This document shows positions 2,938 through 59,330 of a stretch of DNA of 64,000 nt, piece by piece. The position numbers and the translations under genes are program-made. Below the pieces are notes generated by a model. The model ran no database searches. It was not told the origin of the DNA and was given only the letters and a program-made list of their open reading frames with translations. Positions within the stretch are counted from its first letter, which is position 1, and each line of letters opens with the position of its first letter. The stretch is from the NCBI GenBank assembly GCA_034003985.1, contig JAVEXP010000002.1, positions 144,789 through 208,788 of the forward strand, read 5' to 3'. Source of the DNA: Patescibacteria group bacterium (GTDB lineage Bacteria > Patescibacteriota > Patescibacteriia > Buchananbacterales > UBA6539).

Positions 2938-2945
2938 AAGATTTA

Positions 2946-2977
2946 GAGCCGCTGACATGGGGAGTAGTCAGCGGCTC
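2946..2977. terminator. perfect 11-bp stem hairpin (GAGCCGCTGAC/GTCAGCGGCTC) between convergent genes
   Basis: Inverted repeat read directly in the sequence. It is followed on the plus strand by a G8 tract and on the minus strand by a T-rich stretch, so it could terminate either or both convergent genes. Confidence 0.45.
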
Positions 2978-3000
2978 CTGAGGGGGGGGAGGGAAGGTGT

Positions 3001-3372
3001 CTAGTCGACGCCGGCCGGTTGCAAGCACTTGTGTGCTGCTTCGGTTGCGGCGAGTTGTGCCATGTAGGCACTGACACCGCCAGCGTAGGGGCGAGCGCTC
3101 TCAAGCGCCTGAAGTTCGCCGATGCGACCGTTGATGGCATTCGTCATGTCCAGGAAGTTGGGTGGGTTGCACCCAATCGGGAAATTGTCGCACAGACACT
3201 TCCACAGTTCCTGGCCGATCAGCGGATTCTGGGGATTATCTCCCGTTAGCGTGGCGACGGCGTCGCACACATCCGCTTCGGGCGCATCGATCGCGTCCGC
3301 AACCTGTCGCAACAATTCGGCGAGTTCCTCGTGGCCATTGGCCAGTTCATTGAAGGTGCGTTTGAGTGGCAT
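3001..3372 (-). CDS. hypothetical small Cys-containing protein on a GC-rich (foreign-looking) island
   Basis: 123-aa ORF. Local GC is far above the window background, with GC-rich codon use. An AGGAG-like RBS ('aggagatcaagg') lies upstream of the ATG. No domain recognised. Confidence 0.5.
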   Translation of the reverse strand: MPLKRTFNELANGHEELAELLRQVADAIDAPEADVCDAVATLTGDNPQNPLIGQELWKCLCDNFPIGCNPPNFLDMTNAINGRIGELQALESARPYAGGVSAYMAQLAATEAAHKCLQPAGVD

Positions 3373-3415
3373 GCCTTGATCTCCTATGGTTTTTGGGCTC
3401 CTGCCAGTTGTCTGT

Positions 3416-3424
3416 ATAATAGCA
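3416..3424 (-). promoter_or_regulatory. putative extended -10 (TGcTATTAT on minus strand) for the GC-rich gene 3001..3372
   Basis: Minus-strand 'AAAATATGCTATTATAC' about 45 nt upstream of the start codon. The same 15-mer context occurs upstream of the second GC-rich gene (25851..25859). Confidence 0.35.
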
Positions 3425-3573
3425 TATTTTATTGATTAAGTCAATATAAAAGTAATAAAAAAAGACTAAATTAAGGTATTTTTAAAGTCAAAATCGTCAT
3501 ATTTTTGCTGTTGTGAAATTTAAAGTTTGGTTTTTTGATATGTGTCTGTTATCCGGATAGAATATGTTCAATA

Positions 3574-3827
3574 TGTCATCCTGGATTACCCATTCTGTAA
3601 TCCCGAGTATTCTTATTGTCATCCTGAATCCTCCATTCTGTCATCCTGAGCGAAGCGAAGGATCTAGATTCTTCGGCCTGCGGCCTCAGAATGACACGGA
3701 ATTTAAGTTTAATAATTTAAAACAGCTAATCTATATTTTTTCATATCATTCTTCTGTCATCCTGAGTCCCGACACGAATACTCCCTTTGTCATCCTGAGT
3801 CACGACGCAGTCGGGACGAAGGATCTC
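3574..3827. repeat. cluster of five copies of a short dispersed repeat (core TGTCATCCTGA[GA]); two copies extend into hairpin-forming modules
   Basis: Copies at 3574, 3617, 3639-3695 (TGTCATCCTGAGCGAAGCGAAGGATCT...CCTCAGAATGACA, a near-perfect inverted repeat), 3755 and 3788-3827 (contains the GTCCCGAC/GTCGGGAC palindrome). A sixth copy lies at 10893..10926. Confidence 0.7.
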
Positions 3828-16648: not shown

Positions 16649-18157
16649 ATGCCCAAGGGAATAAAGTGGGAAGTCATCGCTCATGAATATGTCGTTAGTT
16701 TATTCCCGGTTTTTATGTTGGTTGACGGTATTTTTGTTGGCATTAAAAAGCATCTGGGAGTTGCCGTGGAAATGGCCGAAGTAATTACCGGTAACACCAC
16801 TACTCATTGCTATCAATTAAAAACTTGGGATCAGGCTCATCGGGCGCTAGTTGCCAGAATAAAAGGTAAGCCGGAAATTTTGAAAAAGTTTTTTCTGGCA
16901 ATGGTCCGTGATGGTAAAAGGCAGGTAGCTTATACTAAAAAAGTTTTCCGATTAAACCTAGCTAAAACCTCTAATCGGCAACTGAATAATTATTATCAAA
17001 AGTATTGTAGTTTGAATACTGATTTTTATGCTGTTGGTTTAATTTTACCGTTGTTGGATTTTCAAAAAACTACTTTTTTGTCCGATGAAGTGTCTAAAAT
17101 TTTAAAACATCGTCGGGCGATAAATTATTTCAGCCTGTTGACTACGCCGCTGACCGACAGTTTTAATAAAATTCAGGAGTTGAATTTATTGAGTATTTTG
17201 GTTGATATCAAAAAGAAAAAAAAGGTGTTTGGTTTATTTAAAGAATATAGTAGCCGGGAAATTGTTGATTTGTTGCCAAAGTTGGATAAAGATAGTTGGC
17301 AAAAAATCAGACGGCACGCTAAAAAATACGCCTGGGTACATTATGTTTATCAAGGACCGGCGGGTGATGAGGCTTATTTTATTGACTTCATCCGCGATTT
17401 TATCCGTCGAAAAATTGATCCCAAAAAAGAAATTCTAAATCATCGCCAAGCTAAAGAAGTGCTAGCTCGCCGCCAAAACGAGCTTTATCAAAAGCTTAAG
17501 CTCACCAGATATGAAAAACAGATTTTATTGTTGGCTCGTGATGCCGTTTACTATAAAATCTATCGCCGGGATATGCAATCGGCTTCCTATTATTATTTGG
17601 AGCCACTTTTATTGGAAATCGGCCGTCGGCTTGGATTGTCGATTAGGCAGGTCAGAATGATGTTGCCCGAAGAAATCGCCGCTGGTTTAATTGATAATAA
17701 AGTTGATTATGACGAGATTAACAGCCGGTTGAAGTTTTTGGTTTATTATCGTTTGGGTAAAACCAGAAAAATTTTGTCCGGTGTTAAAGCTAAAGAATTT
17801 TCTAAAAATGTTAAGATCGAAAAAGTTAACAAAAATATTTCTGAATTTACCGGCGCGACCGCTCAAACCGGAAAAGCCAAGGGGCGAGTTAAAATAATTA
17901 ATTCCCCCGAAGAGATGACTAAAATGAGCAAGGGTGATATTCTGGTTTCCGGAGCAACTAATCCTAATTTAATGCCGGCCATTAGGCAGGCTTCAGCGAT
18001 TGTCACCGACGAGGGTGGCCTGACTTGTCACGCGGCCATCGTCAGTCGGGAGCTGAAAATTCCGTGCGTGGTAGGAACTAATTTTGCCACTAAAGTTTTA
18101 AAGGACGGCGATACGGTGGAAGTTGACGCCAAAAGCGGTTTGGTCAAAAAAATATGA
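16649..18157 (+). CDS. paralog 1: helical N-region + PEP-utilising-enzyme mobile (phosphohistidine swivel) domain
   Basis: 502 aa. C-terminus '[66 protein letters not shown]' matches the PEP-utilizers His domain, with catalytic His in T-C-H. The N-region has no PpsA-like TIM barrel. Confidence 0.8.
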   Translation: MPKGIKWEVIAHEYVVSLFPVFMLVDGIFVGIKKHLGVAVEMAEVITGNTTTHCYQLKTWDQAHRALVARIKGKPEILKKFFLAMVRDGKRQVAYTKKVFRLNLAKTSNRQLNNYYQKYCSLNTDFYAVGLILPLLDFQKTTFLSDEVSKILKHRRAINYFSLLTTPLTDSFNKIQELNLLSILVDIKKKKKVFGLFKEYSSREIVDLLPKLDKDSWQKIRRHAKKYAWVHYVYQGPAGDEAYFIDFIRDFIRRKIDPKKEILNHRQAKEVLARRQNELYQKLKLTRYEKQILLLARDAVYYKIYRRDMQSASYYYLEPLLLEIGRRLGLSIRQVRMMLPEEIAAGLIDNKVDYDEINSRLKFLVYYRLGKTRKILSGVKAKEFSKNVKIEKVNKNISEFTGATAQTGKAKGRVKIINSPEEMTKMSKGDILVSGATNPNLMPAIRQASAIVTDEGGLTCHAAIVSRELKIPCVVGTNFATKVLKDGDTVEVDAKSGLVKKI

Positions 18158-19374
18158 ATAAAGTAGAATGGGTTAAACAATTGACCAGGGAAAACACCCT
18201 TTTGGACCGGAGTTTGCGCGCCATTGCTTATCGTGACAGCATTAAAGAAATCGGTCAGGCCAGTATGTCCAATGTTTTGTTGGTCGGTCAAGGTCAAGTT
18301 ACCTCAATGTATTATTTGCCCTCGGACTACAATAAACAGCAAAAAATAATTATCAATGAATTTAAGGGTAAGCGAGCTGATGAAATGGGAAATCAAATTT
18401 TAGAATTTTTGTCCGAAGGCTATATTTGGTCCAAAAAATTACGAAATAAAAAATTGAATCGTCGCGAATTAGTTGAATATTATCAGCAGTTTAAAAAGCA
18501 TCATGCCCATTCGCGTGGAGCCATTACATATGGCTATTGGGGTGAACCGTTAATTACTCAAAAATTACGCCAGGCTCTCAAGGTTAAAGTCGCCGGCAAA
18601 AATTTGGATAGTACCATTTCAATCTTATCTTCGCCTCGTCCTGTTTTTGGATCGCTTCAAGCTTTGCGCCATCATTCGTCGGAAGTTGAAAGAAATAAAA
18701 CCAAAATTTTAAAAAAATTAAAACTTAATAAGCAGGCTAGTGAGCTAGTTGAGATATTGAGTTGGTTTACTTTATTGTATGAGTTAGGCGAATTAGTTTC
18801 TTCTTATTTATATGATCAGTTTTTGGGGCAGCTGAAACATTCAGTCGGTAAAAAAAATTTTGCTGATTTGATGTGGTATGATCCTTTTAGTTTGGAATAT
18901 TATTTGAAGGGTCAAGATCTGAGCAAGGCGGAATTGGCCGCTCGGCAAGATTTTTGGGTGATTGAAATCCTAAATGGTAAATGGAAACTGTTTGTCGGCG
19001 CTCAAGCCCGAAAATATTATCAATCACATATTCCTCAAGAAAAGACAATTGATAATTCAGTCCTAAGAGGCACGGTTGCTAGTTTAGGCCAGGCTCGGGG
19101 AAAAGTAAAAATTGTTATTACTCAAGCAGATCAGGCTAAAATGAATAGAGGCGATATTTTGGTTTCGCCCATGACTACGCCAAGATTAATGTCGGCAGTC
19201 AAAAAAGCGGGAGCGATTGTTACCGATGAGGGCGGTTTAACCGCTCATGCGGCAATTGTCAGCCGGGAGTTCAACATTCCTTGCATTGTTGGCACCAAGG
19301 TTGCTACTAAAATTCTTAACGATGGCGATTTAGTGGAAGTGGACGCTCAACAGGGGATAGTCAGAAAAATTTAA
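18154..19374 (+). CDS. paralog 2 (shortest, most divergent N-region) with C-terminal phosphohistidine swivel domain
   Basis: 406 aa; ATGA overlap with paralog 1. C-terminus '[49 protein letters not shown]'. Confidence 0.8.
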   Translation: MNKVEWVKQLTRENTLLDRSLRAIAYRDSIKEIGQASMSNVLLVGQGQVTSMYYLPSDYNKQQKIIINEFKGKRADEMGNQILEFLSEGYIWSKKLRNKKLNRRELVEYYQQFKKHHAHSRGAITYGYWGEPLITQKLRQALKVKVAGKNLDSTISILSSPRPVFGSLQALRHHSSEVERNKTKILKKLKLNKQASELVEILSWFTLLYELGELVSSYLYDQFLGQLKHSVGKKNFADLMWYDPFSLEYYLKGQDLSKAELAARQDFWVIEILNGKWKLFVGAQARKYYQSHIPQEKTIDNSVLRGTVASLGQARGKVKIVITQADQAKMNRGDILVSPMTTPRLMSAVKKAGAIVTDEGGLTAHAAIVSREFNIPCIVGTKVATKILNDGDLVEVDAQQGIVRKI

Positions 19375-19457
19375 TTTATTTGGTTGTTAAATATTTAAGG
19401 CTGAATTGACAGTCTTTTTGGTTTATGCTAGTCTGAATATGTTGTAAAAATAACAAT

Positions 19458-21377
19458 ATGTTAGAAAAGCTTTTTACTTCTAAGCCTCGGGTCAAGATTC
19501 TGCATTGGTTTTTTCAGCATCCAAATCAGTGGTTTTACGCTCGGCAGATTGTTAAAGCTACCAAACTTGATCCGGGCAATACCCAGCGTGAATTGGAAAA
19601 GCTTATAGAATTAAATTTATTAATCGTTAAAAAGCGAGGCAGTAGCCGCTTTTTTTGTTTAAATAAAAATAATCCATATTTTTCCGGGCTTAAACAGCTT
19701 TTTGCTAATTATCAACATCACAATTTAGAGTCTGGATCAAAACCAAAGAATAATCGCACTGGTACCGGCCTTAAATATTTGGCGGACCAAGATCCTTGGA
19801 TGCTTGGTGAAGATATTCCGGATATGGATTTTTTCTTTTCTCAAATCTGGCTTTCCAGTTTTGCCAATGAATTTAAAAAAACCGCCGGAGTTGCTTATAA
19901 AAAAATCATGTGTATCTTCAAGGGGTATCATTTGTGGTTTTATTATGGTCAAGATGATTCTAATAAAGTTGGCAATTGGCTTGTAAAACGATTTTTGTCT
20001 AAGCCGGAATTTACCGGCAAGATCAATCAGCAGATTGTTTATTGGTCTGATAAATTACGCTCGTTTGCCGAAAAAATTCCCCAAGACAATCTCGCTAAAT
20101 TGTCAAATCGGCGGTTATGGCAATTATATGATCAGCATGACAAGCTTCATACCATTTATTATCAATGGGGGTGGATACCAGTGGCAGCGGATATGTTTCA
20201 CAATAATTTGACTGATGCATTAAAAGATTATTTGCGCGGCACCGGGGTGGCCGAAGACAAAGTTAACGAGTATCTGGTGACCTTAACCCAACCAACAAAA
20301 AAATCTTTGCTACAAATCGAACAGGATGAATTTCTAAAGATTGCCATTAAAATTCAAAATGATCATTATCATTTTAAATTATTTAAGGAATTGTATAAGA
20401 ACTTTAAGGAGCAGGAAGCCGCTCCTTATGGTCTAAAAACCCATACTCCAGAATACGAAAAAATGTTAGAAAAACGCATGGATGAGATTAAAGATAAAAT
20501 AAAACCCTTAATTTTAACATTGATCCAGAATCATTACCGTAAATATTTTTATATCAGTTTTATGTGGATCAATAGCGATGCGGTTTATAGTTTTGAACAT
20601 TATCTTAAAGAGTTGGTAAAAATTGTTAATTCCGGAACTGATTTAGCCAAGAAATATCAAGACCAAGAAAAAGAATTCAAGGCCAATTTAGCATTGCGCG
20701 CCAAGCTCATCAAGCAACTTAAGATCAAAAAGCCATGGTCAATCATCATTGATTCATGGGGTGATTTTATGGTAACTAAAATTTACCGTCGGTTTGCCCA
20801 GATTTTTGCGATTTATCAAATGCAGGCGATTTTAGTGGAAATTGCGAAAAGGCTCAACCTTAGTTTAATGCAAGTAAGGTTTATGTTAAATTCAGAAGTG
20901 AAAGCTGCTCTTTTAACCGGGCAACTTGATAGGTACCAGCTTAAAAAAAGAACTCGCTTTTGTGTTTATTGGGTGGAACTGGGGAAAGAGGCGGTTTTTG
21001 TTGATGATCAGGCCAGATTTTTGGCTAAGCCGGTCTTATCTGCCAAAGTCAAAGCGGTTGATGAAATTAAGGGTCAAACCGGTTGTATTGGCCGAGCCAA
21101 GGGAAAAGTTAAAATAGTTATTCGGCCTAAAGATATGGTAAAATTTAATAAAGGCGACATTTTGGTGTCGATTGCTACTGATCCAGATATTGTCCCGGCA
21201 ATGAAGAAAGCGGCCGCGATTGTCACGGAACAAGGGGGAGTTACTTCCCATGCGGCAATTGTTTCTCGAGAATTGGGAATCCCTTGCGTTATTGGTACCA
21301 AAATTGCTACTAAGGTTTTAAAGGACGGCGATGAAGTTGAAGTTGATGCCACTAAGGGTATAGTTAAAAAAATATAA
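19458..21377 (+). CDS. paralog 3: N-terminal winged-helix-like extension + helical region + phosphohistidine swivel domain
   Basis: 639 aa. The first ~90 aa ('[51 protein letters not shown]') resemble a wHTH fold. C-terminus '[22 protein letters not shown]'. Confidence 0.75.
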
Positions 21378-21381
21378 CAAT

Positions 21382-22851
21382 ATGATGATTCCTTTTGACA
21401 AAAAATGGGTGGTATTAGAAAAAGAAGATTATGCCAATTATCTTTTTGTTGTTTCAACTTGGGAAGCCTTTACAATCAAAAATCCAGAATACGGATTTAA
21501 AAACTTTAGCTGGTTGTCGGCCGAATATATAAACAAAGAGTGCAATCTATTTTGTCCGCTTGAAGTATATCAAGATCTATCCAAAGATTATTTGGCCAGT
21601 ATTTTTACCAGTCCGGCAATCTGGTATAAGCTCCACCAAGAAAATATTTATTATGCCAAAGAGACTTTTAGATTTGCCCGCGAGGTTAAAAAACTTAATG
21701 TCTCAAAAATGTCTGATAAGCAGATTTTGAGTTGGTTAAATAAATTTGAAATAGTCCAACAAGAAAATCATGACCGGCGCGGACCAATGTTTATGATTGA
21801 AGTCAAGGATAATCTTTTCTCCAACTATTTGATGGAATATCTTCGAGAAAGATGCAACGATCTAAATTCTAAAATTTCGCCTTTAACGGCTTTTCAAATT
21901 TTAACCACTCCTACTAAAAAAAGCATAATAAAAAAGCAACAGGAAGATTTAGCAATGATTGCTTTATTGAATGATAAAACAAAACAGGAAAGATTATTGA
22001 TAAGACATGTCAAAAAGTATGAATGGTTGGAATACGGTTTGCAGGGCAAAGTGTTGGATATCGGGTATTTTCGTCAGGAGTTATCTCGGGTTAAAAACCG
22101 AAGGCCAAAACAATTGATTTTAAAATACCACAATGAAATTAATGATCTTAAATTAAAACAACGGCAAATTACCAAAAATTTGAAAATTCATCGTCATCAT
22201 CAAAAACTTTTTAATATCGCCAGGGAGTCAATTTATGTTAAAGTGTTAAGCAAGGACGCCCAATTTTATTCTTATTATGCCACCGAAAATTTGTTCAAAG
22301 AGTTGGCCCGGCGCGGCGGGTTGACGTTGGAACAGGTGAGATTTTTAACTTTTAATGAATACCAAAAAGTTATATCGGGAAAAAATTTAGCTACCTTGGC
22401 CAATGATCGGATGAAATACAGTATTCACTTTGCTGATCGCGGCAAAACGGTCATCTATGCTGGTTCAGAGGCCAACCAAGTCAGAAAAAAGATAAATTTT
22501 ATCCGTGACGACAACGTATTGGATAAATCATTAACGGAGTTTGGCGGCAGCCCGGCTTATCCTGGCAAGGTCAGTGGTAAGGTAAAAATAATCAATTCTA
22601 CTCAAGAGATGATGAAGATGCATCGCGGTGATATTTTGGTTTCTCATATGACCAATCCTGATATCGTGCCAGCCATGAAATTAGCCGCCGCTATTGTTAC
22701 CGATTTAGGTGGGATTACTTGTCATGCCGCGATCATTAGTCGTGAATTAAAAATTCCCTGTGTCATTGGAACTAAAATCGCCACCCAAGTTTTGAAAGAT
22801 GGTGATAAAATTGAGGTTGACGCGTTAAAAGGAATAATTAAAAAGATATGA
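21382..22851 (+). CDS. paralog 4 with C-terminal phosphohistidine swivel domain
   Basis: 489 aa. 'GGITCHAAIISRELKIPCVIGT'; shares the 'LTTPTKKS', 'HVKKYEWLEY' and 'QVRF' motifs with the other paralogs. Confidence 0.8.
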   Translation: MMIPFDKKWVVLEKEDYANYLFVVSTWEAFTIKNPEYGFKNFSWLSAEYINKECNLFCPLEVYQDLSKDYLASIFTSPAIWYKLHQENIYYAKETFRFAREVKKLNVSKMSDKQILSWLNKFEIVQQENHDRRGPMFMIEVKDNLFSNYLMEYLRERCNDLNSKISPLTAFQILTTPTKKSIIKKQQEDLAMIALLNDKTKQERLLIRHVKKYEWLEYGLQGKVLDIGYFRQELSRVKNRRPKQLILKYHNEINDLKLKQRQITKNLKIHRHHQKLFNIARESIYVKVLSKDAQFYSYYATENLFKELARRGGLTLEQVRFLTFNEYQKVISGKNLATLANDRMKYSIHFADRGKTVIYAGSEANQVRKKINFIRDDNVLDKSLTEFGGSPAYPGKVSGKVKIINSTQEMMKMHRGDILVSHMTNPDIVPAMKLAAAIVTDLGGITCHAAIISRELKIPCVIGTKIATQVLKDGDKIEVDALKGIIKKI

Positions 22852-23462
22852 AAAAAAATGAAATCAAACTCATAATTTTTGATGCTTATGGAGCAGTCAT
22901 GAGTAGAGGTTATCCTGACACCATGGCGGTTTTGGCCAAAAGATTTGCTATTCCCGAAAAAAAATTGAGCGAGGTGATTTATCGCAAGTATTTTGAAATG
23001 GCCGCCCAACGCCAGATCACCCAAAAGCAGGCTTGGCAGTTGCCGGTTAAAGAGCTTAATTTGCCAATCAGTTGGCAAGAATTGCGCGATCTTCATTATG
23101 GTTTAATGGAGATAAACCAGCCGGTTTTTGAAATCGCTAAAAAACTCCGAAAAAAGTATAAGGTGATAATTTTAAGTAAGAGCACTAGAACGCAATTTGT
23201 TGATGTTTTAAAAAAGAAACATCCTCAAGTGCCAAGAAATTTTGATGCCATTGTCAATACTTGGGAACTTGGTCTGCCCAAAGCCTCAAAAGAGACTATT
23301 AGTTTTTTGGCTAAAAGATTTAAGATATCGCCCAAGGAGATTTTGTATATTGATGATCAGCGGTCAAACTTGGTCGCATTGGATAAAATGGGTGGAAAAA
23401 CGATTTACTATCAAAATTTTAAGCAATTTAAAAAAGAACTTGAGCACTACATTGATCTATGA
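22848..23462 (+). CDS. HAD-superfamily hydrolase with atypical motif I (D-x-Y-G)
   Basis: 204 aa. 'LIIFDAYGAVM' is motif I with Tyr at D+2; 'ILSKSTRTQ' is motif II; 'YIDDQRSNLVALDKMGGKTIY' is motif III/IV. ATGA overlaps on both sides place it in one operon with the paralog array. Confidence 0.7.
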   Translation: MKKNEIKLIIFDAYGAVMSRGYPDTMAVLAKRFAIPEKKLSEVIYRKYFEMAAQRQITQKQAWQLPVKELNLPISWQELRDLHYGLMEINQPVFEIAKKLRKKYKVIILSKSTRTQFVDVLKKKHPQVPRNFDAIVNTWELGLPKASKETISFLAKRFKISPKEILYIDDQRSNLVALDKMGGKTIYYQNFKQFKKELEHYIDL

Positions 23463-24931
23463 AAAACAACATTAAACTGAAAGATTTTGTTTTTATGTCG
23501 CAACGCCAGCGGACCAGCCCTTTTCCTAATTATTTGTCAATGGAGGCGATGTGCGACGAATCCCGCCGCTATGTTGGCCAACGGCTCAAAGAAATGCTTT
23601 GTATTTGGCAAGGCAATTTATTTTTTGCCTTTCCCCATAAGCTTTCTTATGAAAAATCAGGCAAACAGCTGGTTAAAAAAATATTGGTTAATCGCCGCTG
23701 GCCCGCTCAAATGGTTGCCAGTCAAAAAAAATACGGCAAGGTTTTGGTTGAATTTACCAAAAAAATTCATCAATCGGTTGGATCTAAAACTACCAATCGG
23801 CAGCTGGCCAAGATGTTTGAGGACTACGAGAAAAGATATAAACCCGTTTATGCCACTTACGGCTGGGTTTGGCTGGTTGAAGATTTTTTTATGGCCGAGT
23901 TGCTGAAGCTTGTTGAATCTAAAATCAAAAACCCTAATCAGGCGGTTGATATTTTGAATATTCTGACCAAACAGCCCAAAGCAATGGTGGCGCTGATTGA
24001 GCGCAAAGCCCTGCTTGAATTGGCCGTTAAAATCGGCAACAAACCAGGATGGAAAACAAATCAATCAGTTGTTAGATTGATAAATAGTCATATCAGAAAA
24101 TATTTTTGGGTTACCAGGGATTATGAAGATCCGGCTATCAGTCATGACGATGTGGTCAGGCGCTTGGCTGATTTGTTTAGAAAAGATTATCGTCGGGAAT
24201 ATCAACGATTAGTCGGTGCACTCAAGAAAGATAATAAGCTGCAAAAAAAATATTTAAACACCTTGGGATTTAGCGTTACCGAAAAAGAATTATTTGGCGC
24301 GATGCGCGATATTGCCAACCTTAAAGAGCTGCGAAAAACTCATGTTTCGCAATCGCTTTATTATTTTGATAAAGTTTTGGAAGAAATCGCCCGGCGCTTA
24401 TTTTTAAGCATTAGGCAAGTCAGGTTTATGAAAACGGTCGAGATCCGCCAAGCCTTAATTGAGGGTAAAGATTTTACAGCAGAATTGAATAATCGTTTAA
24501 GACTTTCTGCCTGGGACTGTCGGACTGCTAAAACTGAAATTTTTACTGGTTATTCAGCCGAAAAGATATTTAAAGAATTTTGTAAGGTTGATAAAAATAT
24601 CAAAGAATTCTTTGGTCTGCCGGTATCGCCCGGTAAAGCCAGAGGAAAAGTTAAGATTGTGATGAATCCGGACGAATGCGATAAAGTCCAAAAGGGTGAT
24701 ATTATCGTTACTGTTCAGGTAGTGCCCAGCTTTTCAACGGCCATTATTAAGTCTGCCGGTTTAATTTGTGACGGCGGTCACGGCATTACTTCACATCCGG
24801 CAACTTTGGCTCGAGAAGCGGGAATTCCTTGTGTTATTCAAACCAGGTTTGCCAGGGAGGTACTACAAGACGGTGATGAAGTAGAAGTTGATGGGTATGC
24901 CGGGATCGCCAGGATTGTTAAAAGACAATAA
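23459..24931 (+). CDS. paralog 5 (divergent His domain: T-S-H-P-A)
   Basis: 490 aa. C-terminus 'GDIIVTVQVVPSFSTAIIKSAGLICDGGHGITSHPATLAREAGIPCVIQT...VEVDG'. N-region retains 'HIRKYFWVTRDY' and 'QVRFM' motifs. Confidence 0.75.
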   Translation: MKNNIKLKDFVFMSQRQRTSPFPNYLSMEAMCDESRRYVGQRLKEMLCIWQGNLFFAFPHKLSYEKSGKQLVKKILVNRRWPAQMVASQKKYGKVLVEFTKKIHQSVGSKTTNRQLAKMFEDYEKRYKPVYATYGWVWLVEDFFMAELLKLVESKIKNPNQAVDILNILTKQPKAMVALIERKALLELAVKIGNKPGWKTNQSVVRLINSHIRKYFWVTRDYEDPAISHDDVVRRLADLFRKDYRREYQRLVGALKKDNKLQKKYLNTLGFSVTEKELFGAMRDIANLKELRKTHVSQSLYYFDKVLEEIARRLFLSIRQVRFMKTVEIRQALIEGKDFTAELNNRLRLSAWDCRTAKTEIFTGYSAEKIFKEFCKVDKNIKEFFGLPVSPGKARGKVKIVMNPDECDKVQKGDIIVTVQVVPSFSTAIIKSAGLICDGGHGITSHPATLAREAGIPCVIQTRFAREVLQDGDEVEVDGYAGIARIVKRQ

Positions 24932-24974
24932 TTTAGATAAACAAAAAACAGCCGGATTGCTGTGGGGGGGGTGA

Positions 24975-25006
24975 GGGGAGAGAAGTCCATATTTGGATCT
25001 CTCCCC
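24975..25006. terminator. perfect 9-bp stem hairpin (GGGGAGAGA/TCTCTCCCC) beside a G8 tract, between convergent genes
   Basis: Read directly. It lies downstream of the stop of the minus-strand GC-rich gene (25029) and downstream of paralog 5 (24931). The arrangement mirrors the hairpin/poly-G pair at 2946-2998. Confidence 0.45.
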
Positions 25007-25028
25007 TCGGCGTGCGCGTTGGTGGGGT

Positions 25029-25685
25029 CTACGGGATGGCGATTCCATACCAGTCTTCTGAGAGGCGCAGGATTTCGATCTCGACGATTTTGCCGTCTTC
25101 GAAGGTCGCCAGGAATCCCTCGCAGTATTGAAGCTGGCCTTCAATTGCGTCCATCGTCATTGGCAGATTTGCACCCAGCCGGTTGGACAGTTTGATGGCC
25201 GCGCCGTCGATGGCCGCGCCGTGGACGGTGACCAAGTGGTCTCCTTCTACGGCTCCGCGTTCGTCAATGACTTCGAGCATCTCGCTACTCTTAATGTCTA
25301 CTGCCTCGGGAGCCGTTTCCATAATCGCCGCTTCGACGGTGATCTCGGCTGTCTTGGCATGGGCTTTGGCGGCCTTCAAACCTTCGCTTACGATGTCGCG
25401 CTTGTCAGTGCTGAAATCATCCAGCCGCGGATCATGCGCAATGTCGGGCTCGATAGCCGGTTTGTAGCCGCAGATCCCGCGGACGAGCACGATCAGGGTT
25501 CGCCAGCACCGGGGCTGGGGACTGCTGACATAGTCGACAAAGTGAAAGTTGAAGACCCGGACAAATACTCCCATCACAAATGCGATGACTTCGCCGCAGT
25601 CGGTCAGGGCCTGGGGGTCTTTCTCGTTTGCCTTGTCTCTCTCACTGTGTCGAATAACCAGTACTCTTGATTGCATCAGTCTCAT
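25029..25685 (-). CDS. histidine phosphatase superfamily protein (SixA / PGM-like branch), GC-rich foreign-looking gene
   Basis: Start set at the internal Met ('MRLMQSRVLVIRHSE...'), which has an AAGGA RBS 8 nt upstream. 'RVLVIRHSERD' matches the RHG motif context, 'LTDCGEV' the L-T-x-x-G loop, 'YVSSPQPRCWRT' the 'vySSPl.Ra.qTA' motif, and 'HLVTVHGAAI' the second catalytic His motif. GC is far above background. Confidence 0.6.
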   Translation of the reverse strand: MRLMQSRVLVIRHSERDKANEKDPQALTDCGEVIAFVMGVFVRVFNFHFVDYVSSPQPRCWRTLIVLVRGICGYKPAIEPDIAHDPRLDDFSTDKRDIVSEGLKAAKAHAKTAEITVEAAIMETAPEAVDIKSSEMLEVIDERGAVEGDHLVTVHGAAIDGAAIKLSNRLGANLPMTMDAIEGQLQYCEGFLATFEDGKIVEIEILRLSEDWYGIAIP

Positions 25686-25850
25686 CCTTCTTGTCTGGCC
25701 GCATTCTCTATTGCGGCCGCCATTCCTGCCATAAGTCACCAATCACACTGGTTGACTCGATAAAGCAGCAATCAGCACAGGGCGATTGCCGCTCAATTGA
25801 GCCAACCAATGATATAACACGCACTATTTAACTTTAAAGAACGATATATG

Positions 25851-25859
25851 ATTATAGCA
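25851..25859 (-). promoter_or_regulatory. putative extended -10 (TGCTATAAT on minus strand) for the GC-rich gene
   Basis: Minus-strand 'ACAAAATATGCTATAATCATAT' ~110 nt upstream of the gene. It shares the motif AAAATATGCTAT(A/T)AT with the promoter of the first GC island. Confidence 0.4.
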
Positions 25860-25986
25860 TATTTTGTAAATATTGTCAAAGGAAAATTAAAATTATTAGC
25901 TCAAATTAGCTAAAATATTGTAAAAATTACTGATTACTGCTAGAATTAAATTATTATTTTACCCTAAAAATCAAAATTTAAAAAAT

Positions 25987-26952
25987 ATGACAAAGTTTAC
26001 CAAACCATTCCCTAAAATTTCCAAAAAAGATGTTGCCATCGCCGGCGGCAAGGGTGCTTCGCTTGGCGAAATGACTAATGCTAAAATTCCAGTGCCTAAG
26101 GGGTTTGTAATTTTGGCTGAAGCCTTTGATCATTTCTTAAATGAAACCCCAAAATCGCCGGTTGCCCAAACCGATTTAGAAGTCGATGCTTTGCTTGCAA
26201 AAGTTAATTTTGATGATACTAATTCCATTGATAAGGCTTCCAATGTTATTCGTGATATTATGCACGACACCAAAATGCCAAAAGCTTTGGCTCAGGAAAT
26301 TGCCGCTGAATTCAAAAAACTCAAAACTAAATATGTAGCCGTCAGGTCTTCGGCTACGGCTGAAGATTCCTCAATCGCTTCTTGGGCCGGTGAGTTGGAA
26401 ACTTATCTGCACACGACTGAGAAGACATTGTTGGATAAAGTTAAACATTGCTGGTCATCACTATATACGCCTCGGGCGATTTTCTATCGTTATGAAAAAA
26501 AGCTGATTGACCAGCAAGTTTCAGTGGCTGTCGTTGTTCAAGAAATGGTCGAATCTGAAATTTCGGGGGTTGCCTTTACCGTCCATCCTGTTACCAAGGC
26601 TAAAAATCAAATGATCATTGAAGCCGGATTTGGCCTAGGCGAGGCGATTGTTTCCGGCCAGATTACCCCGGACAGTTATATTGTCGACAAGACTGATTTA
26701 TCTATTTTGGATATCAATGTGGCTGAACAAAAACGGATGTTGGTTCGTAAAAGTCAGGCCGGCGGCATTGTTTGGAAACCAGTAGCCAAAGCCAAACAGG
26801 AGTCGCAAGTACTTTCTGGTAAACAGATTATTGAATTGTCTAAAATCTGTATTAATATCGAAAAGCATTATAAATGTCCTCAGGATATTGAGTGGGCCTA
26901 CACCAAGGGCAAATTTTATATTACTCAATCAAGACCGATTACTACTCTTTAG
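25987..26952 (+). CDS. stand-alone ATP-grasp nucleotide-binding domain of the PEP synthase / pyruvate phosphate dikinase family (PPDK_N only)
   Basis: 321 aa. 'VAIAGGKGASLGEMTNAKIPVPKGFVILAEAF' matches the PpsA/PPDK N-terminus. It ends with 'PQDIEWAYTKGKFYITQSRPITTL', the C-terminal boundary of the ATP-grasp module. No His domain and no TIM barrel in the same ORF. Confidence 0.85.
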   Translation: MTKFTKPFPKISKKDVAIAGGKGASLGEMTNAKIPVPKGFVILAEAFDHFLNETPKSPVAQTDLEVDALLAKVNFDDTNSIDKASNVIRDIMHDTKMPKALAQEIAAEFKKLKTKYVAVRSSATAEDSSIASWAGELETYLHTTEKTLLDKVKHCWSSLYTPRAIFYRYEKKLIDQQVSVAVVVQEMVESEISGVAFTVHPVTKAKNQMIIEAGFGLGEAIVSGQITPDSYIVDKTDLSILDINVAEQKRMLVRKSQAGGIVWKPVAKAKQESQVLSGKQIIELSKICINIEKHYKCPQDIEWAYTKGKFYITQSRPITTL

Positions 26953-26958
26953 GTTTCT

Positions 26959-28500
26959 ATGACCGCCAAGATTTGGACTAAAAATTGGGAAATCAGGCGA
27001 GTTAGTTTTTTGCTCTCGCACGAAGCGCCCGAATCGTTTCTCAAACTGCAGAATCTTTATTTTGGCTCTAAAATTCTTACTCAAATCATTTGGGTAAACG
27101 AAAATCAAGATAATACCGCCACCTATTTTTTAAAGCCTGAACTGCGCCGGGCGATTGACGCCACTTTTGATTTGGTTGTTAATAATCCCGGCAAGGTTTC
27201 CCAAATTCACCGCCAAGCCATTGAACATAACCGCGACCTTTTCCGATTATTAAAAAAGACCCAGTCGGTTAATCTGGCTAAATTTTCCAACCAACAATTG
27301 GCTTTGCTCTATTCCAGAATTTTTAAAAAGATTCAGCTGGCCCATGGCTCCAGTTTTTACTCCACTTACTTGGTAGATGCCGATGGTGAAGACCTGACAA
27401 ATTATTTGATTAATAAAGTCCGCCAAAGAATTATTGAGCTTAAACTTAAGCTTAATTTTGCTGAAGTTTTCAGCCTATTGACCACCCCAACCAGGATTAA
27501 TTTGGAACAACTGGAAAACCGTCAATTTCTGGCGGTATTGAGCGATATTACCGCTGATTCCCAAGCTAAAAAATTATTCTTGGGGAATTTGCCTGATCAA
27601 ATTGAAAAGAAATTAAACGAATTGGACCCGCGGTTAAAGAGAAAAATTGTTAATCACCATCGGCGCTGGCAGTGGATTCCTTATGATTATTTAGGCCCAG
27701 CTTATGAACTTGGTTACTATTTAGAAATTTGGCGAGGGTTATTAAAACAAAAAATAAATATTAACAAAGAGATTGCCAAACTGGTTAATGGCCGTGATGA
27801 AATCAGGAAACAAAAAAATAAATTATTTAAACAGTTGGAGTTTAACCGTTATGACCGTCAAATTTTTGATTTGGCCAGTGAAATCGTTTGGCTTAAATCA
27901 TGGCGCAAAGAGGTTTTATTTTTTGCCAGTTTTATTGTTGATAAAGTTTATCAAGAGCTGGCCAGGCGCTGTCATATTTCGTTCAATCAAGCTAGGCACT
28001 TGACTAATATCGAGGTGGCCCAAGTTTTATCGGGCAAGGTTGTGCCGATTAATGAGTTAAATCAAAGAATAAAATTTGTCGTTATTCATTTTAAATCTTT
28101 CAGCAAACGGATAATGACTGGGGCAACGGCCAAAAAGTTTATGGCCACTCAGCATTTTGAAAAAATAAAGATTGTTGATGCTAAGGAGTTGAAAGGCACC
28201 CCGGCTTGTCCGGGTAAAGTCAAGGGTTTAGTCAAAATTGTCAATGTGCCAGATGAAATGTCTAAAATGAAATCCGGTAATATAATGGTGGCCCATTCGA
28301 CTTATCCTTCTTTGGTGCCGGCCATGAAAAAGGCCGGCGCGATTATTACCGAAGACGGCGGTTTAACCTGCCATGCGGCGATTGTGGCCCGAGAGTTAAA
28401 AATCCCTTGCGTGGTTGGAACCAGGATTGCCGCTAAAGTCTTGAAAGACGGTGATATGGTTGAAGTTGACGCCACCAATGGTATAATAAAAAAAGTATGA
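26959..28500 (+). CDS. paralog 6 with C-terminal phosphohistidine swivel domain
   Basis: 513 aa; starts 7 nt after the ATP-grasp gene. 'GNIMVAHSTYPSLVPAMKKAGAIITEDGGLTCHAAIVARELKIPCVVGT'; shares 'LTTPTRINL' and 'HHRRWQWIPYDY' with the other paralogs. Confidence 0.8.
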   Translation: MTAKIWTKNWEIRRVSFLLSHEAPESFLKLQNLYFGSKILTQIIWVNENQDNTATYFLKPELRRAIDATFDLVVNNPGKVSQIHRQAIEHNRDLFRLLKKTQSVNLAKFSNQQLALLYSRIFKKIQLAHGSSFYSTYLVDADGEDLTNYLINKVRQRIIELKLKLNFAEVFSLLTTPTRINLEQLENRQFLAVLSDITADSQAKKLFLGNLPDQIEKKLNELDPRLKRKIVNHHRRWQWIPYDYLGPAYELGYYLEIWRGLLKQKININKEIAKLVNGRDEIRKQKNKLFKQLEFNRYDRQIFDLASEIVWLKSWRKEVLFFASFIVDKVYQELARRCHISFNQARHLTNIEVAQVLSGKVVPINELNQRIKFVVIHFKSFSKRIMTGATAKKFMATQHFEKIKIVDAKELKGTPACPGKVKGLVKIVNVPDEMSKMKSGNIMVAHSTYPSLVPAMKKAGAIITEDGGLTCHAAIVARELKIPCVVGTRIAAKVLKDGDMVEVDATNGIIKKV

Positions 28501-28769
28501 AGCGTTTAACTTTAACGATCCATGGCTTGGTCCAAGGCGTCGGTTACCGTTACATGAGTCAAAATGAGGCCAAAAAAAGGGGTTTTACCGGTTATGTGAC
28601 CAATCATAATGACGGCGGGGTGATTTTGGTAGCCGAAGGGGAAGAAGAGGACTTGAAAAAATTCAAAGAATGGTGCTATAATGGAGTTGGACCAGCAATG
28701 GTCAAAAAAATCGAAATGGACTGGTCGGGCGCGACTGGTGAATTTTCTGATTTTGTTATAAAATTCTAG
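28497..28769 (+). CDS. acyP: acylphosphatase
   Basis: 90 aa. 'LTIHGLVQGVGYRYMSQNEAKKRGFTGYVTNHNDGGVILVAEGEEEDLKKFKEWC' matches the acylphosphatase signatures (V-x-G-x-V-Q-G-V-x-F/Y-R and G-x-V-x-N-x-x-D-G-x-V). ATGA overlap with paralog 6. Confidence 0.85.
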   Translation: MKRLTLTIHGLVQGVGYRYMSQNEAKKRGFTGYVTNHNDGGVILVAEGEEEDLKKFKEWCYNGVGPAMVKKIEMDWSGATGEFSDFVIKF

Positions 28770-58646: not shown

Positions 58647-59330
58647 TCAAGAAAAATGATTAACTATTTTTATGTTTAAAATTGATGAAGCTGTTTTGTC
58701 TGGTTGATAATCTTTAAGATATTTTTGCCAAGCATTATTGAAATTAATCATTGATCTTCGATAAGCTTCATAGTCGCCATTTGGGTAATTGGCATCAAAT
58801 CTTCTTTTGATTCTTTTTTCTAAATATTCATTTTTTAATTTAATAAAAATAATTTTGTCAAAAATATTTTCAAACATTTTGGTATTCTTTAAAAATATCC
58901 CTTCTACTAGCAAAACCTCATTATTTAAATTAAGTTGAATTATCTGTGGACCCTTATTTTTTTTATAACATATGTTTTTTAATACAAAGTATTTTTTTCT
59001 AGCAGATCTAAAATCTTTAGCCATTTTTTTTATCAATTTAGTTTTGTACCATTTCTCTTCAAAAACTTGGCATTTATTTTGGTAACTTTCCAGTGCTTTT
59101 CTGCGAAAGGCACTGGAATACATAAAATAATCAAGATGAACAGCGGTAATATCTTTATTTTTATAGGCCAGCTCTTTCAGAATAACCGTTTTTCCTAAAC
59201 CACTGGGTCCGTCAATCCCAATAATCAATTTTTTATTTGGGAGCTCCCGTTGCCATTTTTTGATTAATTTAATTATTGCCTCAACTATTTTTTGATTGGG
59301 GTCTTGGTCCATATGATTAAAGGTTAGCAA
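58647..59330 (-). CDS. P-loop nucleoside/nucleotide kinase (uridine kinase / PRK family-like)
   Basis: 227 aa. 'LIIGIDGPSGLGKTVILKEL' is a Walker A of the uridine-kinase type. 'LLVEGIF' matches the uridine kinase 'vEGi' motif. Confidence 0.5.
   Translation of the reverse strand: MLTFNHMDQDPNQKIVEAIIKLIKKWQRELPNKKLIIGIDGPSGLGKTVILKELAYKNKDITAVHLDYFMYSSAFRRKALESYQNKCQVFEEKWYKTKLIKKMAKDFRSARKKYFVLKNICYKKNKGPQIIQLNLNNEVLLVEGIFLKNTKMFENIFDKIIFIKLKNEYLEKRIKRRFDANYPNGDYEAYRRSMINFNNAWQKYLKDYQPDKTASSILNIKIVNHFS

Follow-up and report, generated by a model that had tools for sequence, protein, structure and literature searches.

A short, GC-rich gene on the minus strand lies beside an array of genes for phosphohistidine-domain proteins in a patescibacterial contig. 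We asked whether it is a foreign gene that happened to land there, a phosphatase acting on the phosphohistidines of its neighbors, or an established member of the cluster with a substrate of another kind. The window, i.e., the whole stretch of DNA analyzed, is 64,000 nucleotides long.

Gene model and transcription signals

The segment holds a single long minus-strand open reading frame (ORF; 25029..25742, 237 aa counted from a TTG start). A sequence-only reading of this DNA had placed the start of the gene at the first ATG of the ORF, 25685. The best-supported start is the ATG at 25676, which is preceded by a Shine-Dalgarno sequence (AAGGA, 8 nt upstream), agrees with the NCBI model P0001 (215 aa), and matches the homologues, which open with M-x-SRV. 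The gene, its catalytic codons, and the predicted signals around it are as follows.

25029..25676, minus strand: phosphatase coding sequence, 215 aa, a divergent branch-1 member of the histidine phosphatase superfamily
25652-25647 (R9-H10), 25511-25509 (R56), 25418-25416 (D87, the putative general acid), and 25223-25221 (H152), minus strand: catalytic codons
25851..25879, minus strand: sigma-70-type promoter, TTGACA-17-TATAAT with an upstream TG (extended -10), 12 of 12 positions, a consensus match only
25677..25843, minus strand: predicted 5' leader of about 165 nt, with hairpins and the Shine-Dalgarno sequence
24937..25008, minus strand: 3' region common to the convergent upstream gene, with hairpins, a C8 run, and a T-run

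The predicted promoter would supply the phosphatase gene with its own transcript. The leader of that transcript contains a long imperfect hairpin (~25746-25811) and a GGCCGC/GCGGCC hairpin (~25697-25718), and its predicted folding (MFE -66.3) was well below that of shuffled sequences (z -5.1). A conserved 5' leader or riboswitch was considered and rejected, as the 165-nt leader of the window could not be aligned with the DNA upstream of the orthologues. The 3' region comprises an 11-bp GC-rich hairpin (24973-25008), the C8 run on the strand of the gene (24964-24971), and a small, weak hairpin with a T-run (24963-24937).

Between 13912 and 31027, no gene other than the phosphatase gene lies on the minus strand, so that the co-directional block described in the sequence-only reading is real and wider than the 12 kb given there. 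The gene had also been described as inserted into the array, which is inaccurate: it sits between the 3' end of a convergent operon (four swivel proteins, a HAD hydrolase, and a fifth swivel protein) and the promoter region of a divergent one (a PPDK_N protein, a sixth swivel protein, and an acylphosphatase). With a predicted promoter and predicted 3' signals of its own, it would thus be transcribed independently, as a unit pointing toward the array operon.

The neighboring genes encode a split dikinase

The genes of the two flanking operons are the following.

16649..22851, plus strand: four paralogous swivel-His genes (16649-18157, 18154-19374, 19458-21377, and 21382-22851), with a helical N-terminal domain and a C-terminal PEP-utilizers swivel domain, catalytic His kept
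22848..23462, plus strand: HAD-family hydrolase gene within the array, conserved in related loci
23459..24931, plus strand: fifth swivel-His subunit, convergent with the phosphatase gene
25987..26952, plus strand: stand-alone PPDK_N ATP-grasp subunit (HpeI/PpsB-like; PF01326, E 9e-98), divergent from the phosphatase gene
26959..28769, plus strand: sixth swivel-His subunit (26959-28500), followed by an acylphosphatase (28497-28769)

All six swivel proteins of the window keep the catalytic His in the motif GG-x-T-x-H, and the earlier count of six phosphohistidine-domain proteins adjacent to the gene is thereby borne out. The PPDK_N protein matched the ATP-grasp domains of PEP synthase and rifampin phosphotransferase (RPH) with E values of 1e-57 to 1e-75. 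The AlphaFold model of the swivel protein encoded at 23459-24931 (pLDDT 82.9) had RPH as its only full-length structural match (5fbu, E 2.2e-13, TMq 0.52), while PPDK, PEP synthase, and Enzyme I matched it at the swivel domain only. The cluster is a multi-subunit (split) small-molecule dikinase. Given the RPH/HpeHI-type architecture of these neighbors, the proteins called phosphohistidine carriers in the sequence-only reading are thus catalytic subunits handing phosphate to small molecules.

The architecture of the two-component small-molecule dikinases HpeHI, CreHI, and PpsAB has been set out before, HpeH being described as a helical substrate-binding domain plus a swivel His (PMC12167813). 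The cluster studied here resembles these systems in having a separate ATP-grasp subunit, and its other subunits resemble RPH and HpeH in joining a helical substrate-binding domain to the swivel His. Unlike HpeHI, CreHI, and PpsAB, it combines one ATP-grasp gene with six swivel subunits and with HAD, acylphosphatase, and histidine phosphatase genes; it contains no carboxylase or other catabolic enzyme, and its host is a reduced-genome Patescibacterium.

Family, fold, and catalytic residues of the phosphatase

Scored singly against the Pfam model PF00300 (His_Phos_1), P0001 reached 15.8 to 16.2 bits (E 0.011 at 15.8 bits), below the gathering cutoff of 21.7 bits. Its relative P0002 reached 21.1 bits, single sequences of the family thus lying at or under the Pfam threshold. 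Among 29 family members, 11 matched PF00300 at an E value of ≤0.01, the best at 1.8e-6. The assignment to the histidine phosphatase superfamily made in the sequence-only reading proved correct, although the Pfam score of the single sequence does not carry it; membership is based on the family profile and the structure described below.

A word-indexed search returned P0001 itself and one relative, P0002, with 47% identity. An exhaustive HMMER search of 1.84 billion representative proteins, with a two-sequence profile as the query, found 46 clusters at an E value of ≤1e-3 (21 of them at ≤1e-30), all of the same type. The family is very small and appears to be confined to Patescibacteria. Some of the relatives are named "histidine phosphatase family protein" or "broad specificity phosphatase (PhoE)" by NCBI/JGI. 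PADLOC and PHROG gave no matches, and a defense-system or phage origin was rejected.

In the alignment of 29 sequences, H10, H152, and D91 were invariant, and R9, R56, D87, Q22, T25, G28, S52, G145, E186, and P206 were at least 90% conserved, while the Gly position of the RHG motif was variable (S, V, I, or T). The four motifs quoted in the sequence-only reading are real and fall on conserved columns of the family (R9-H10, T25/G28, S52/R56, and H152). The family profile matched PDB chains of ecdysteroid-phosphate phosphatase (EPPase; 3c7t, E 1.2e-8), Sts-1 (~4e-7), PGAM5 (3e-6), and SixA (4hbz, 1.8e-4), with the RH, SSPxxR, acid, and HG positions in register. R56 and H152 align to ASPALR and HAITLD of EPPase, and D87 aligns with the Glu of its GLFEF motif, which is the proton donor in Sts-1 and EPPase.

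AlphaFold2 run with the 29-sequence alignment gave a model of high confidence (pLDDT 96.6, pTM 0.92) with the characteristic alpha/beta histidine phosphatase fold. At the cap position the model has an insert of about 48 residues (94-141) made up of three helices (94-110, 114-121, and 123-141), and near the C terminus it has a hairpin (187-203). The nearest structures in a fold search were PhoE and RosC. The PGM chains in the PDB were fold-level matches only, with 11 to 17% identity; NCBIfam PGM models gave no match at an E value of ≤10, and no PGM or PhoE model claimed the protein. We regard it as nearly certain that the gene encodes a real protein with a histidine phosphatase fold and, judging by its conserved residues, the enzyme is apparently catalytically intact and active.

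With branch 1 of the superfamily (PF00300; PhoE, RosC, dPGM, and TIGAR) the family shares the catalytic Arg-His, the second Arg, the second His, a putative counterpart of the acidic residue, and a helical insert at the cap position. It departs from branch 1 in having RH-[S/V/I/T]-ERDK in place of RHG, in the motifs DPQ-x-PT and SSPQPR, in a C-terminal beta-hairpin with an invariant G187 and a near-invariant E186, and in being tied to a dikinase cluster. The best sequence-profile matches came from the Sts-1/Sts-2, EPPase, and PGAM5 subgroup (2H-phosphatase domains), the alignment taking in RH, SSPxxR, the acid position (LnDf versus LFEF), and the HG motif. The putative general acid, assigned by alignment, is Asp in our family (D87) and Glu in EPPase and Sts. 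The members of that subgroup are eukaryotic and have other domains attached, unlike the patescibacterial family, and their substrates (pTyr, steroid phosphates, and pSer/pThr/pHis) give no single prediction.

The likeness to SixA drawn in the sequence-only reading did not hold. The SixA equivalog model TIGR00249 (cutoff, 74.5 bits) gave no match to P0001 and only 12.1 bits (E 0.13) to P0002. SixA (1ujc) has 156 residues, of which 151 were aligned, whereas the phosphatase, at 215 aa, is about 60 residues longer and has the three-helix, cap-like insert that SixA lacks as well as the C-terminal hairpin. The protein therefore lies outside the SixA family; what it has in common with SixA is a functional closeness to proteins carrying phospho-His.

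The neighborhood is conserved across loci

A genome scan seeded with an 11-sequence alignment returned few loci. In all 12 loci with usable flanks (the window, L001, L007, and L012 to L020), PEP-utilizers genes were found within a few kilobases of the family member. The phosphatase was opposite in strand to the array wherever the orientation could be read, and PPDK_N and HAD genes were mostly present too where the flank reached far enough. L001 carries P0002; L007, from a Candidatus Doudnabacteria MAG, has two tandem phosphatase copies; L012 and L013 carry P0040 and P0044, which are 26% and 24% identical, respectively; and L014 carries P0050 and P0008, with the HAD fused to a swivel subunit. 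L015, L016, L017, L018, L019, and L020 are further loci with the same type of cluster. Two or three phosphatase paralogues occur in several loci.

Since the neighborhood is kept down to 24% identity, the phosphatase is probably tied to the dikinase cluster in function, as a working part of the module. We found no paper in the literature that describes an association of this family with dikinase clusters. The enzyme class itself is already known; what is new is that the module is conserved and that the compositional anomaly, described next, is heritable.

The GC surplus is inherited and probably not a mark of recent transfer

The elevated GC content of the 24.95- to 25.80-kb segment was confirmed, and GC, GC3, and codon usage all turned out to be strongly atypical. 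Measured over 100 nt at a time, the GC content of 24950-25800 was 0.48 to 0.61, compared with ~0.41 for the window, and it fell to 0.18 to 0.24 in the intergenic stretch 25800-25990. The phosphatase gene has a GC content of 0.56 (GC1/2/3, 0.62/0.38/0.68). Across the 51 remaining long ORFs, GC3 averages 0.42 (standard deviation, 0.063), which places the gene about 4 standard deviations out, and the GC3 of the neighboring genes is 0.36 to 0.48. Its codon-usage distance, 0.346, was the largest among 50 ORFs (median, 0.145), and the amino acid composition also leans to GC-rich codons (GARP share, 0.27 versus 0.22).

The same bias was found in the relatives. All 10 close-clade copies with scorable neighboring genes were GC-richer than those neighbors, and three partial copies on short contigs had a GC content above that of the DNA upstream of each. 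The GC3 surplus of the close-clade copies ranged between +0.07 and +0.32 (mean, +0.20), and the GC3 of the gene followed that of its neighbors (r 0.80, slope 0.84), from 0.56 versus 0.25 in a 33%-GC genome to 0.77 versus 0.56 in genomes of roughly 50% GC. The GC-rich composition is an inherited property of this gene that drifts with the host at a constant surplus. Between the window and L001, the phosphatases are 45 to 47% identical, compared with 39% for the last swivel subunit, 49.5% for the HAD protein, and 61% for the PPDK_N protein. Where a residue is conserved, its codon was identical in a fraction of 0.34 to 0.49, close to the chance expectation of 0.38 to 0.42, and synonymous sites are therefore saturated.

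These data bear on the suggestion that the gene is a horizontally acquired add-on. Recent acquisition from a foreign source, or a chimeric assembly, with the gene lying beside the array by chance, would account for the GC and GC3 values, the extreme codon usage, the shifted amino acid composition, and the lone opposite-strand position. Against it, the same gene and neighborhood recur in 11 or more further loci, which come from other lineages and were assembled independently, with different assemblers, from separate samples, the gene has diverged as much as the genes flanking it, its synonymous sites are saturated, and its promoter, Shine-Dalgarno, and terminator signals look native as sequence matches. 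Its GC3 surplus scales with host GC3 over the range of 0.25 to 0.56, whereas the surplus of a transfer relic should have decayed. The search for a donor lineage among the 1.84 billion representative proteins returned no GC-rich candidate and no closer GC-rich relative. The exact product of the window's own contig is not on record from an independent assembly; the recurrence of the junctions in independent assemblies from different samples argues against misassembly. The foreign or chimeric origin is already largely refuted and must be considered very unlikely, and we are rather confident that the gene is a long-term resident with no recent transfer behind it. A structured noncoding RNA in place of a protein gene would fit the observation that GC-rich islands of AT-rich genomes are often RNA genes, and the predicted folding of the mRNA is slightly more stable than that of its synonymous shuffles (z -2.0). 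Rfam, however, gave no hit when the whole window was searched at gathering thresholds, a search of the segment at an E value of ≤10 brought up nothing but noise, the gene has a codon-position periodicity (GC3 > GC1 > GC2), and conservation at the protein level persists despite the saturated synonymous sites. Together with the pLDDT of the model, this protein evidence already refutes the RNA reading, to which we assign a negligible probability.

The case carries a warning for compositional detectors of horizontal transfer: a strong GC and codon anomaly that standard methods would call a transfer is here inherited across deep divergence. The surplus might be due to selection for a certain structure or stability of the mRNA, to codon-limited expression, or to GC-biased gene conversion. 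The mRNAs of six orthologues folded better than synonymous shuffles, with z values of -1.4 to -4.8; ordinary genes of the window, used as controls, had a mean z of -0.98 (standard deviation, 0.57), and given these controls, selection on mRNA structure is a weak hint. An overlapping or antisense gene as the cause was rejected, as no alternative frame was consistently more open than in synonymous shuffles across the orthologues (antisense a0 frame, P values of 0.03 for the window, 0.85 for L016, and 0.49 for L007b).

A second GC-rich, monocistronic, minus-strand gene is present in the window at 3001-3372. It is an orphan for which a search found no homologues; its promoter resembles that of the phosphatase gene, as does its 3' flank, which contains a C8 run.

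Proposed function and competing explanations

Our best explanation is that the protein is a branch-1 hydrolase and a long-resident partner of the cluster, acting as a product or pathway phosphomonoesterase; we give this explanation as a whole about an even chance. H10 would attack the phosphoryl group, the phosphate being held by R9, R56, and H152, with D87 as the general acid by alignment. One PPDK_N ATP-grasp subunit would serve several interchangeable subunits of the RPH/HpeH/PpsA type, each combining substrate binding with the swivel His. The phosphatase, a separately transcribed and long-standing component of the split dikinase cluster, which also includes the HAD hydrolase, would strip the phosphate that the dikinases put on their small-molecule substrates.

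Most members of the histidine phosphatase superfamily act on small molecules. This, the nearest structures (PhoE and RosC), and the cap-like insert at residues 94-141 lead us to prefer, tentatively and by analogy, a small-molecule phosphoester over a protein phospho-His as the substrate. The Hpe pathway provides a precedent in the same direction, as the product phosphorylated by its two-component dikinase HpeHI is later dephosphorylated (PMC12167813). Several points count against this explanation. The cluster has kinase subunits and three kinds of phosphohydrolase (the HAD protein, the acylphosphatase, and the phosphatase itself) with no obvious intervening enzyme, so that simple product dephosphorylation would look futile, and the best sequence-profile neighbors (Sts-1, PGAM5, and SixA) include protein phosphatases. 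We also count against it the score of P0001 alone, which lies under the Pfam threshold, the replacement of the catalytic Gly of RHG, and the persistent GC surplus, which falls outside the model.

The chief competing explanation is a "reset" phosphatase that hydrolyzes the swivel phospho-His of the six array subunits and would thereby drain or gate the flow of phosphoryl groups from the single ATP-grasp subunit, by analogy with SixA, whose targets are Ndk and NPr, the latter a component of a PEP-dependent phosphorelay (PMC7948535, PMC12934123). The superfamily is named after its catalytic residue, not its substrate (PMC7948535), and a phosphohistidine phosphatase deduced from that name is not established, the case for it being one of context. 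In favor of the reset role, swivel-His proteins are always adjacent, the predicted promoter on the opposite strand fits an independently regulated antagonist, the two or three paralogues in several loci parallel the many swivel subunits, the family profile matches SixA and PGAM5, and SixA offers precedents on phosphocarrier and catalytic phospho-His intermediates. It is offset by the failure of the SixA model, by the helical insert, for which a 156-residue SixA chain has no room, by the small-molecule preference of most of the superfamily, and by the ATP that would be wasted in hydrolyzing a catalytic intermediate. We therefore treat the reset or antagonist role as a live hypothesis, possible but not the most likely one. 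An alternative protein substrate would be a conserved Thr that precedes the swivel His by two residues, the site that is regulated in PPDK and PEP synthase, from which a regulatory phospho-Thr phosphatase would remove an inhibitory phosphate. All six paralogues of the window keep the T-x-H, but this conservation may be structural, and no PDRP/DUF299-like kinase turned up when the cluster genes of the window were scanned with Pfam or among those genes of related loci that carry Pfam annotation, which makes this role improbable. Equally little credit is due to a housekeeping phosphatase or mutase of the PhoE or PGM type that sits beside the array by coincidence. The JGI label on relatives would agree with it, whereas the context shared by all 12 loci, even where identity is as low as 24%, the lack of matches to NCBIfam PGM/PhoE models, and the size of the family (46 clusters in 1.84 billion proteins), which is unlike that of a housekeeping enzyme, speak against it.

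A joint reading, in which the enzyme is a dedicated phospho-His phosphatase for the swivel domains and its GC surplus is held by selection at the nucleic acid level, seems unlikely to us. The enzyme would then be the first known example of a phosphatase for phospho-His of the PEP-utilizer type, and it would arbitrate which of the six substrate-binding subunits is charged by the single ATP-grasp subunit. Selection on the structure of the mRNA, or on codon-limited expression where the enzyme is potentially wasteful, would keep up the GC surplus, and the "foreign" composition of a protein gene would be an adaptive, heritable trait.

If the functional link to the cluster is real, the family marks a Patescibacteria-specific phosphoryl-transfer module with one ATP-grasp subunit, many RPH/HpeH-like acceptors, and up to three kinds of phosphohydrolase. 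In organisms of minimal metabolism, such a module might serve to scavenge or trap host metabolites, to detoxify xenobiotics, or to run a regulatory cycle, and the substrate of the phosphatase, once identified, would offer a direct experimental handle on it.

Several of the loci also hold a second RHG-motif protein of ~300 aa, and small PapZ_C-domain proteins are present in L014 and L018.

The dikinase cluster and its relatives

The phosphatase gene lies in a cluster that was found again in other Patescibacteria (loci L001, L012-L014, and L018-L020).

16649-28769: cluster encoding one PPDK_N (stand-alone ATP-grasp) subunit, six swivel-His paralogues, one HAD hydrolase, and one acylphosphatase
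23459-24931: swivel subunit opposite the phosphatase gene

The one swivel subunit that was modelled is similar over its full length to rifampin phosphotransferase (RPH) and the small-molecule dikinase subunit HpeH, and the cluster (16649-28769) holds no enzyme using a phosphorylated product. The His loop of the subunit opposite the phosphatase gene is divergent, reading GGHGITSHPATLARE and being one residue longer, while the remaining swivel subunits carry GG-L/I/V-T-x-HAAI. In L001, L007, and L012, the gene adjoining the HAD hydrolase gene is a recognisable orthologue of this subunit (39-55% identity).

Some of the related loci hold features that the window itself does not have, namely a HAD-swivel fusion, a second, longer protein family beside the phosphatase, and small PapZ_C (RapZ C-terminal) domain proteins, the last placed between the phosphatase and PPDK_N in L014 and L018. 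The canonical RHG(E/D) motif is present in the L012, L014, and L013 members of the longer family.

L014 13351-15468: HAD and swivel subunit fusion, 705 aa
L012 10855-11733; L014 12309-13229; L018 8937-9836; L019 2146-3030; L013 10769-11641: longer family, about 290-306 aa

The +2 sense frame of several phosphatase orthologues stays open much longer than in synonymous shuffles, for example 184 codons in L016 against 93 in the shuffles (p about 0.01). The window's phosphatase copy shows no such excess (69 versus 56 codons). The long-open frame could be a codon-context effect.

L016 1754-2428; L007 3689-4366; L014 11403-12071; L013 10001-10684: orthologues with an unusually long-open +2 sense frame

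Phosphatase gene: hairpins in the predicted 5' leader

Two hairpins were located in the predicted leader, the folding of which gave a minimum free energy of -66.3 kcal/mol (z -5.1).

25746-25811, minus strand: long imperfect hairpin
25697-25718, minus strand: GGCCGC/GCGGCC hairpin

Because no conservation of the leader sequence was found upstream of the phosphatase orthologues, it may be a regulatory element specific to this lineage, or else a small repeat that was inserted here.

A second GC-rich gene

A further GC-rich open reading frame (GC 0.60, GC3 0.69) resembles the phosphatase gene in composition, in its location on the minus strand, and in having an extended -10 promoter (AAAATATGCTAT[A/T]AT) and a C8 run.

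3001-3372, minus strand: monocistronic ORF, 123 aa (flanks considered, 2940-3000 and 3373-3445)

The C8 run immediately follows the stop codon and is itself followed by an 11-bp hairpin; the only other such run in the window is in the 3' flank of the phosphatase gene. The product had no match in Pfam, PHROG, or PADLOC, and its sole homologue among 5.8 billion proteins searched was itself.

Other features of the window

Neither a tRNA nor a tmRNA gene was detected by ARAGORN in the whole window (1-64000), and zero Rfam families were found there at gathering thresholds. In the AT-rich intergenic stretch at 3574-3806, TGTCATCCTGA(G/A) occurs at least six times as a clustered direct repeat whose tails vary, as in the copy TGTCATCCTGG. 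One copy has the sequence GTCATCCTGAGCGAAGCGAAGGATC. The 227-aa ORF at 58647-59330 (minus strand) is a compositional outlier in the low-GC direction (GC 0.28, GC3 0.24), with F, Y, M, I, N, and K making up 48% of its residues.
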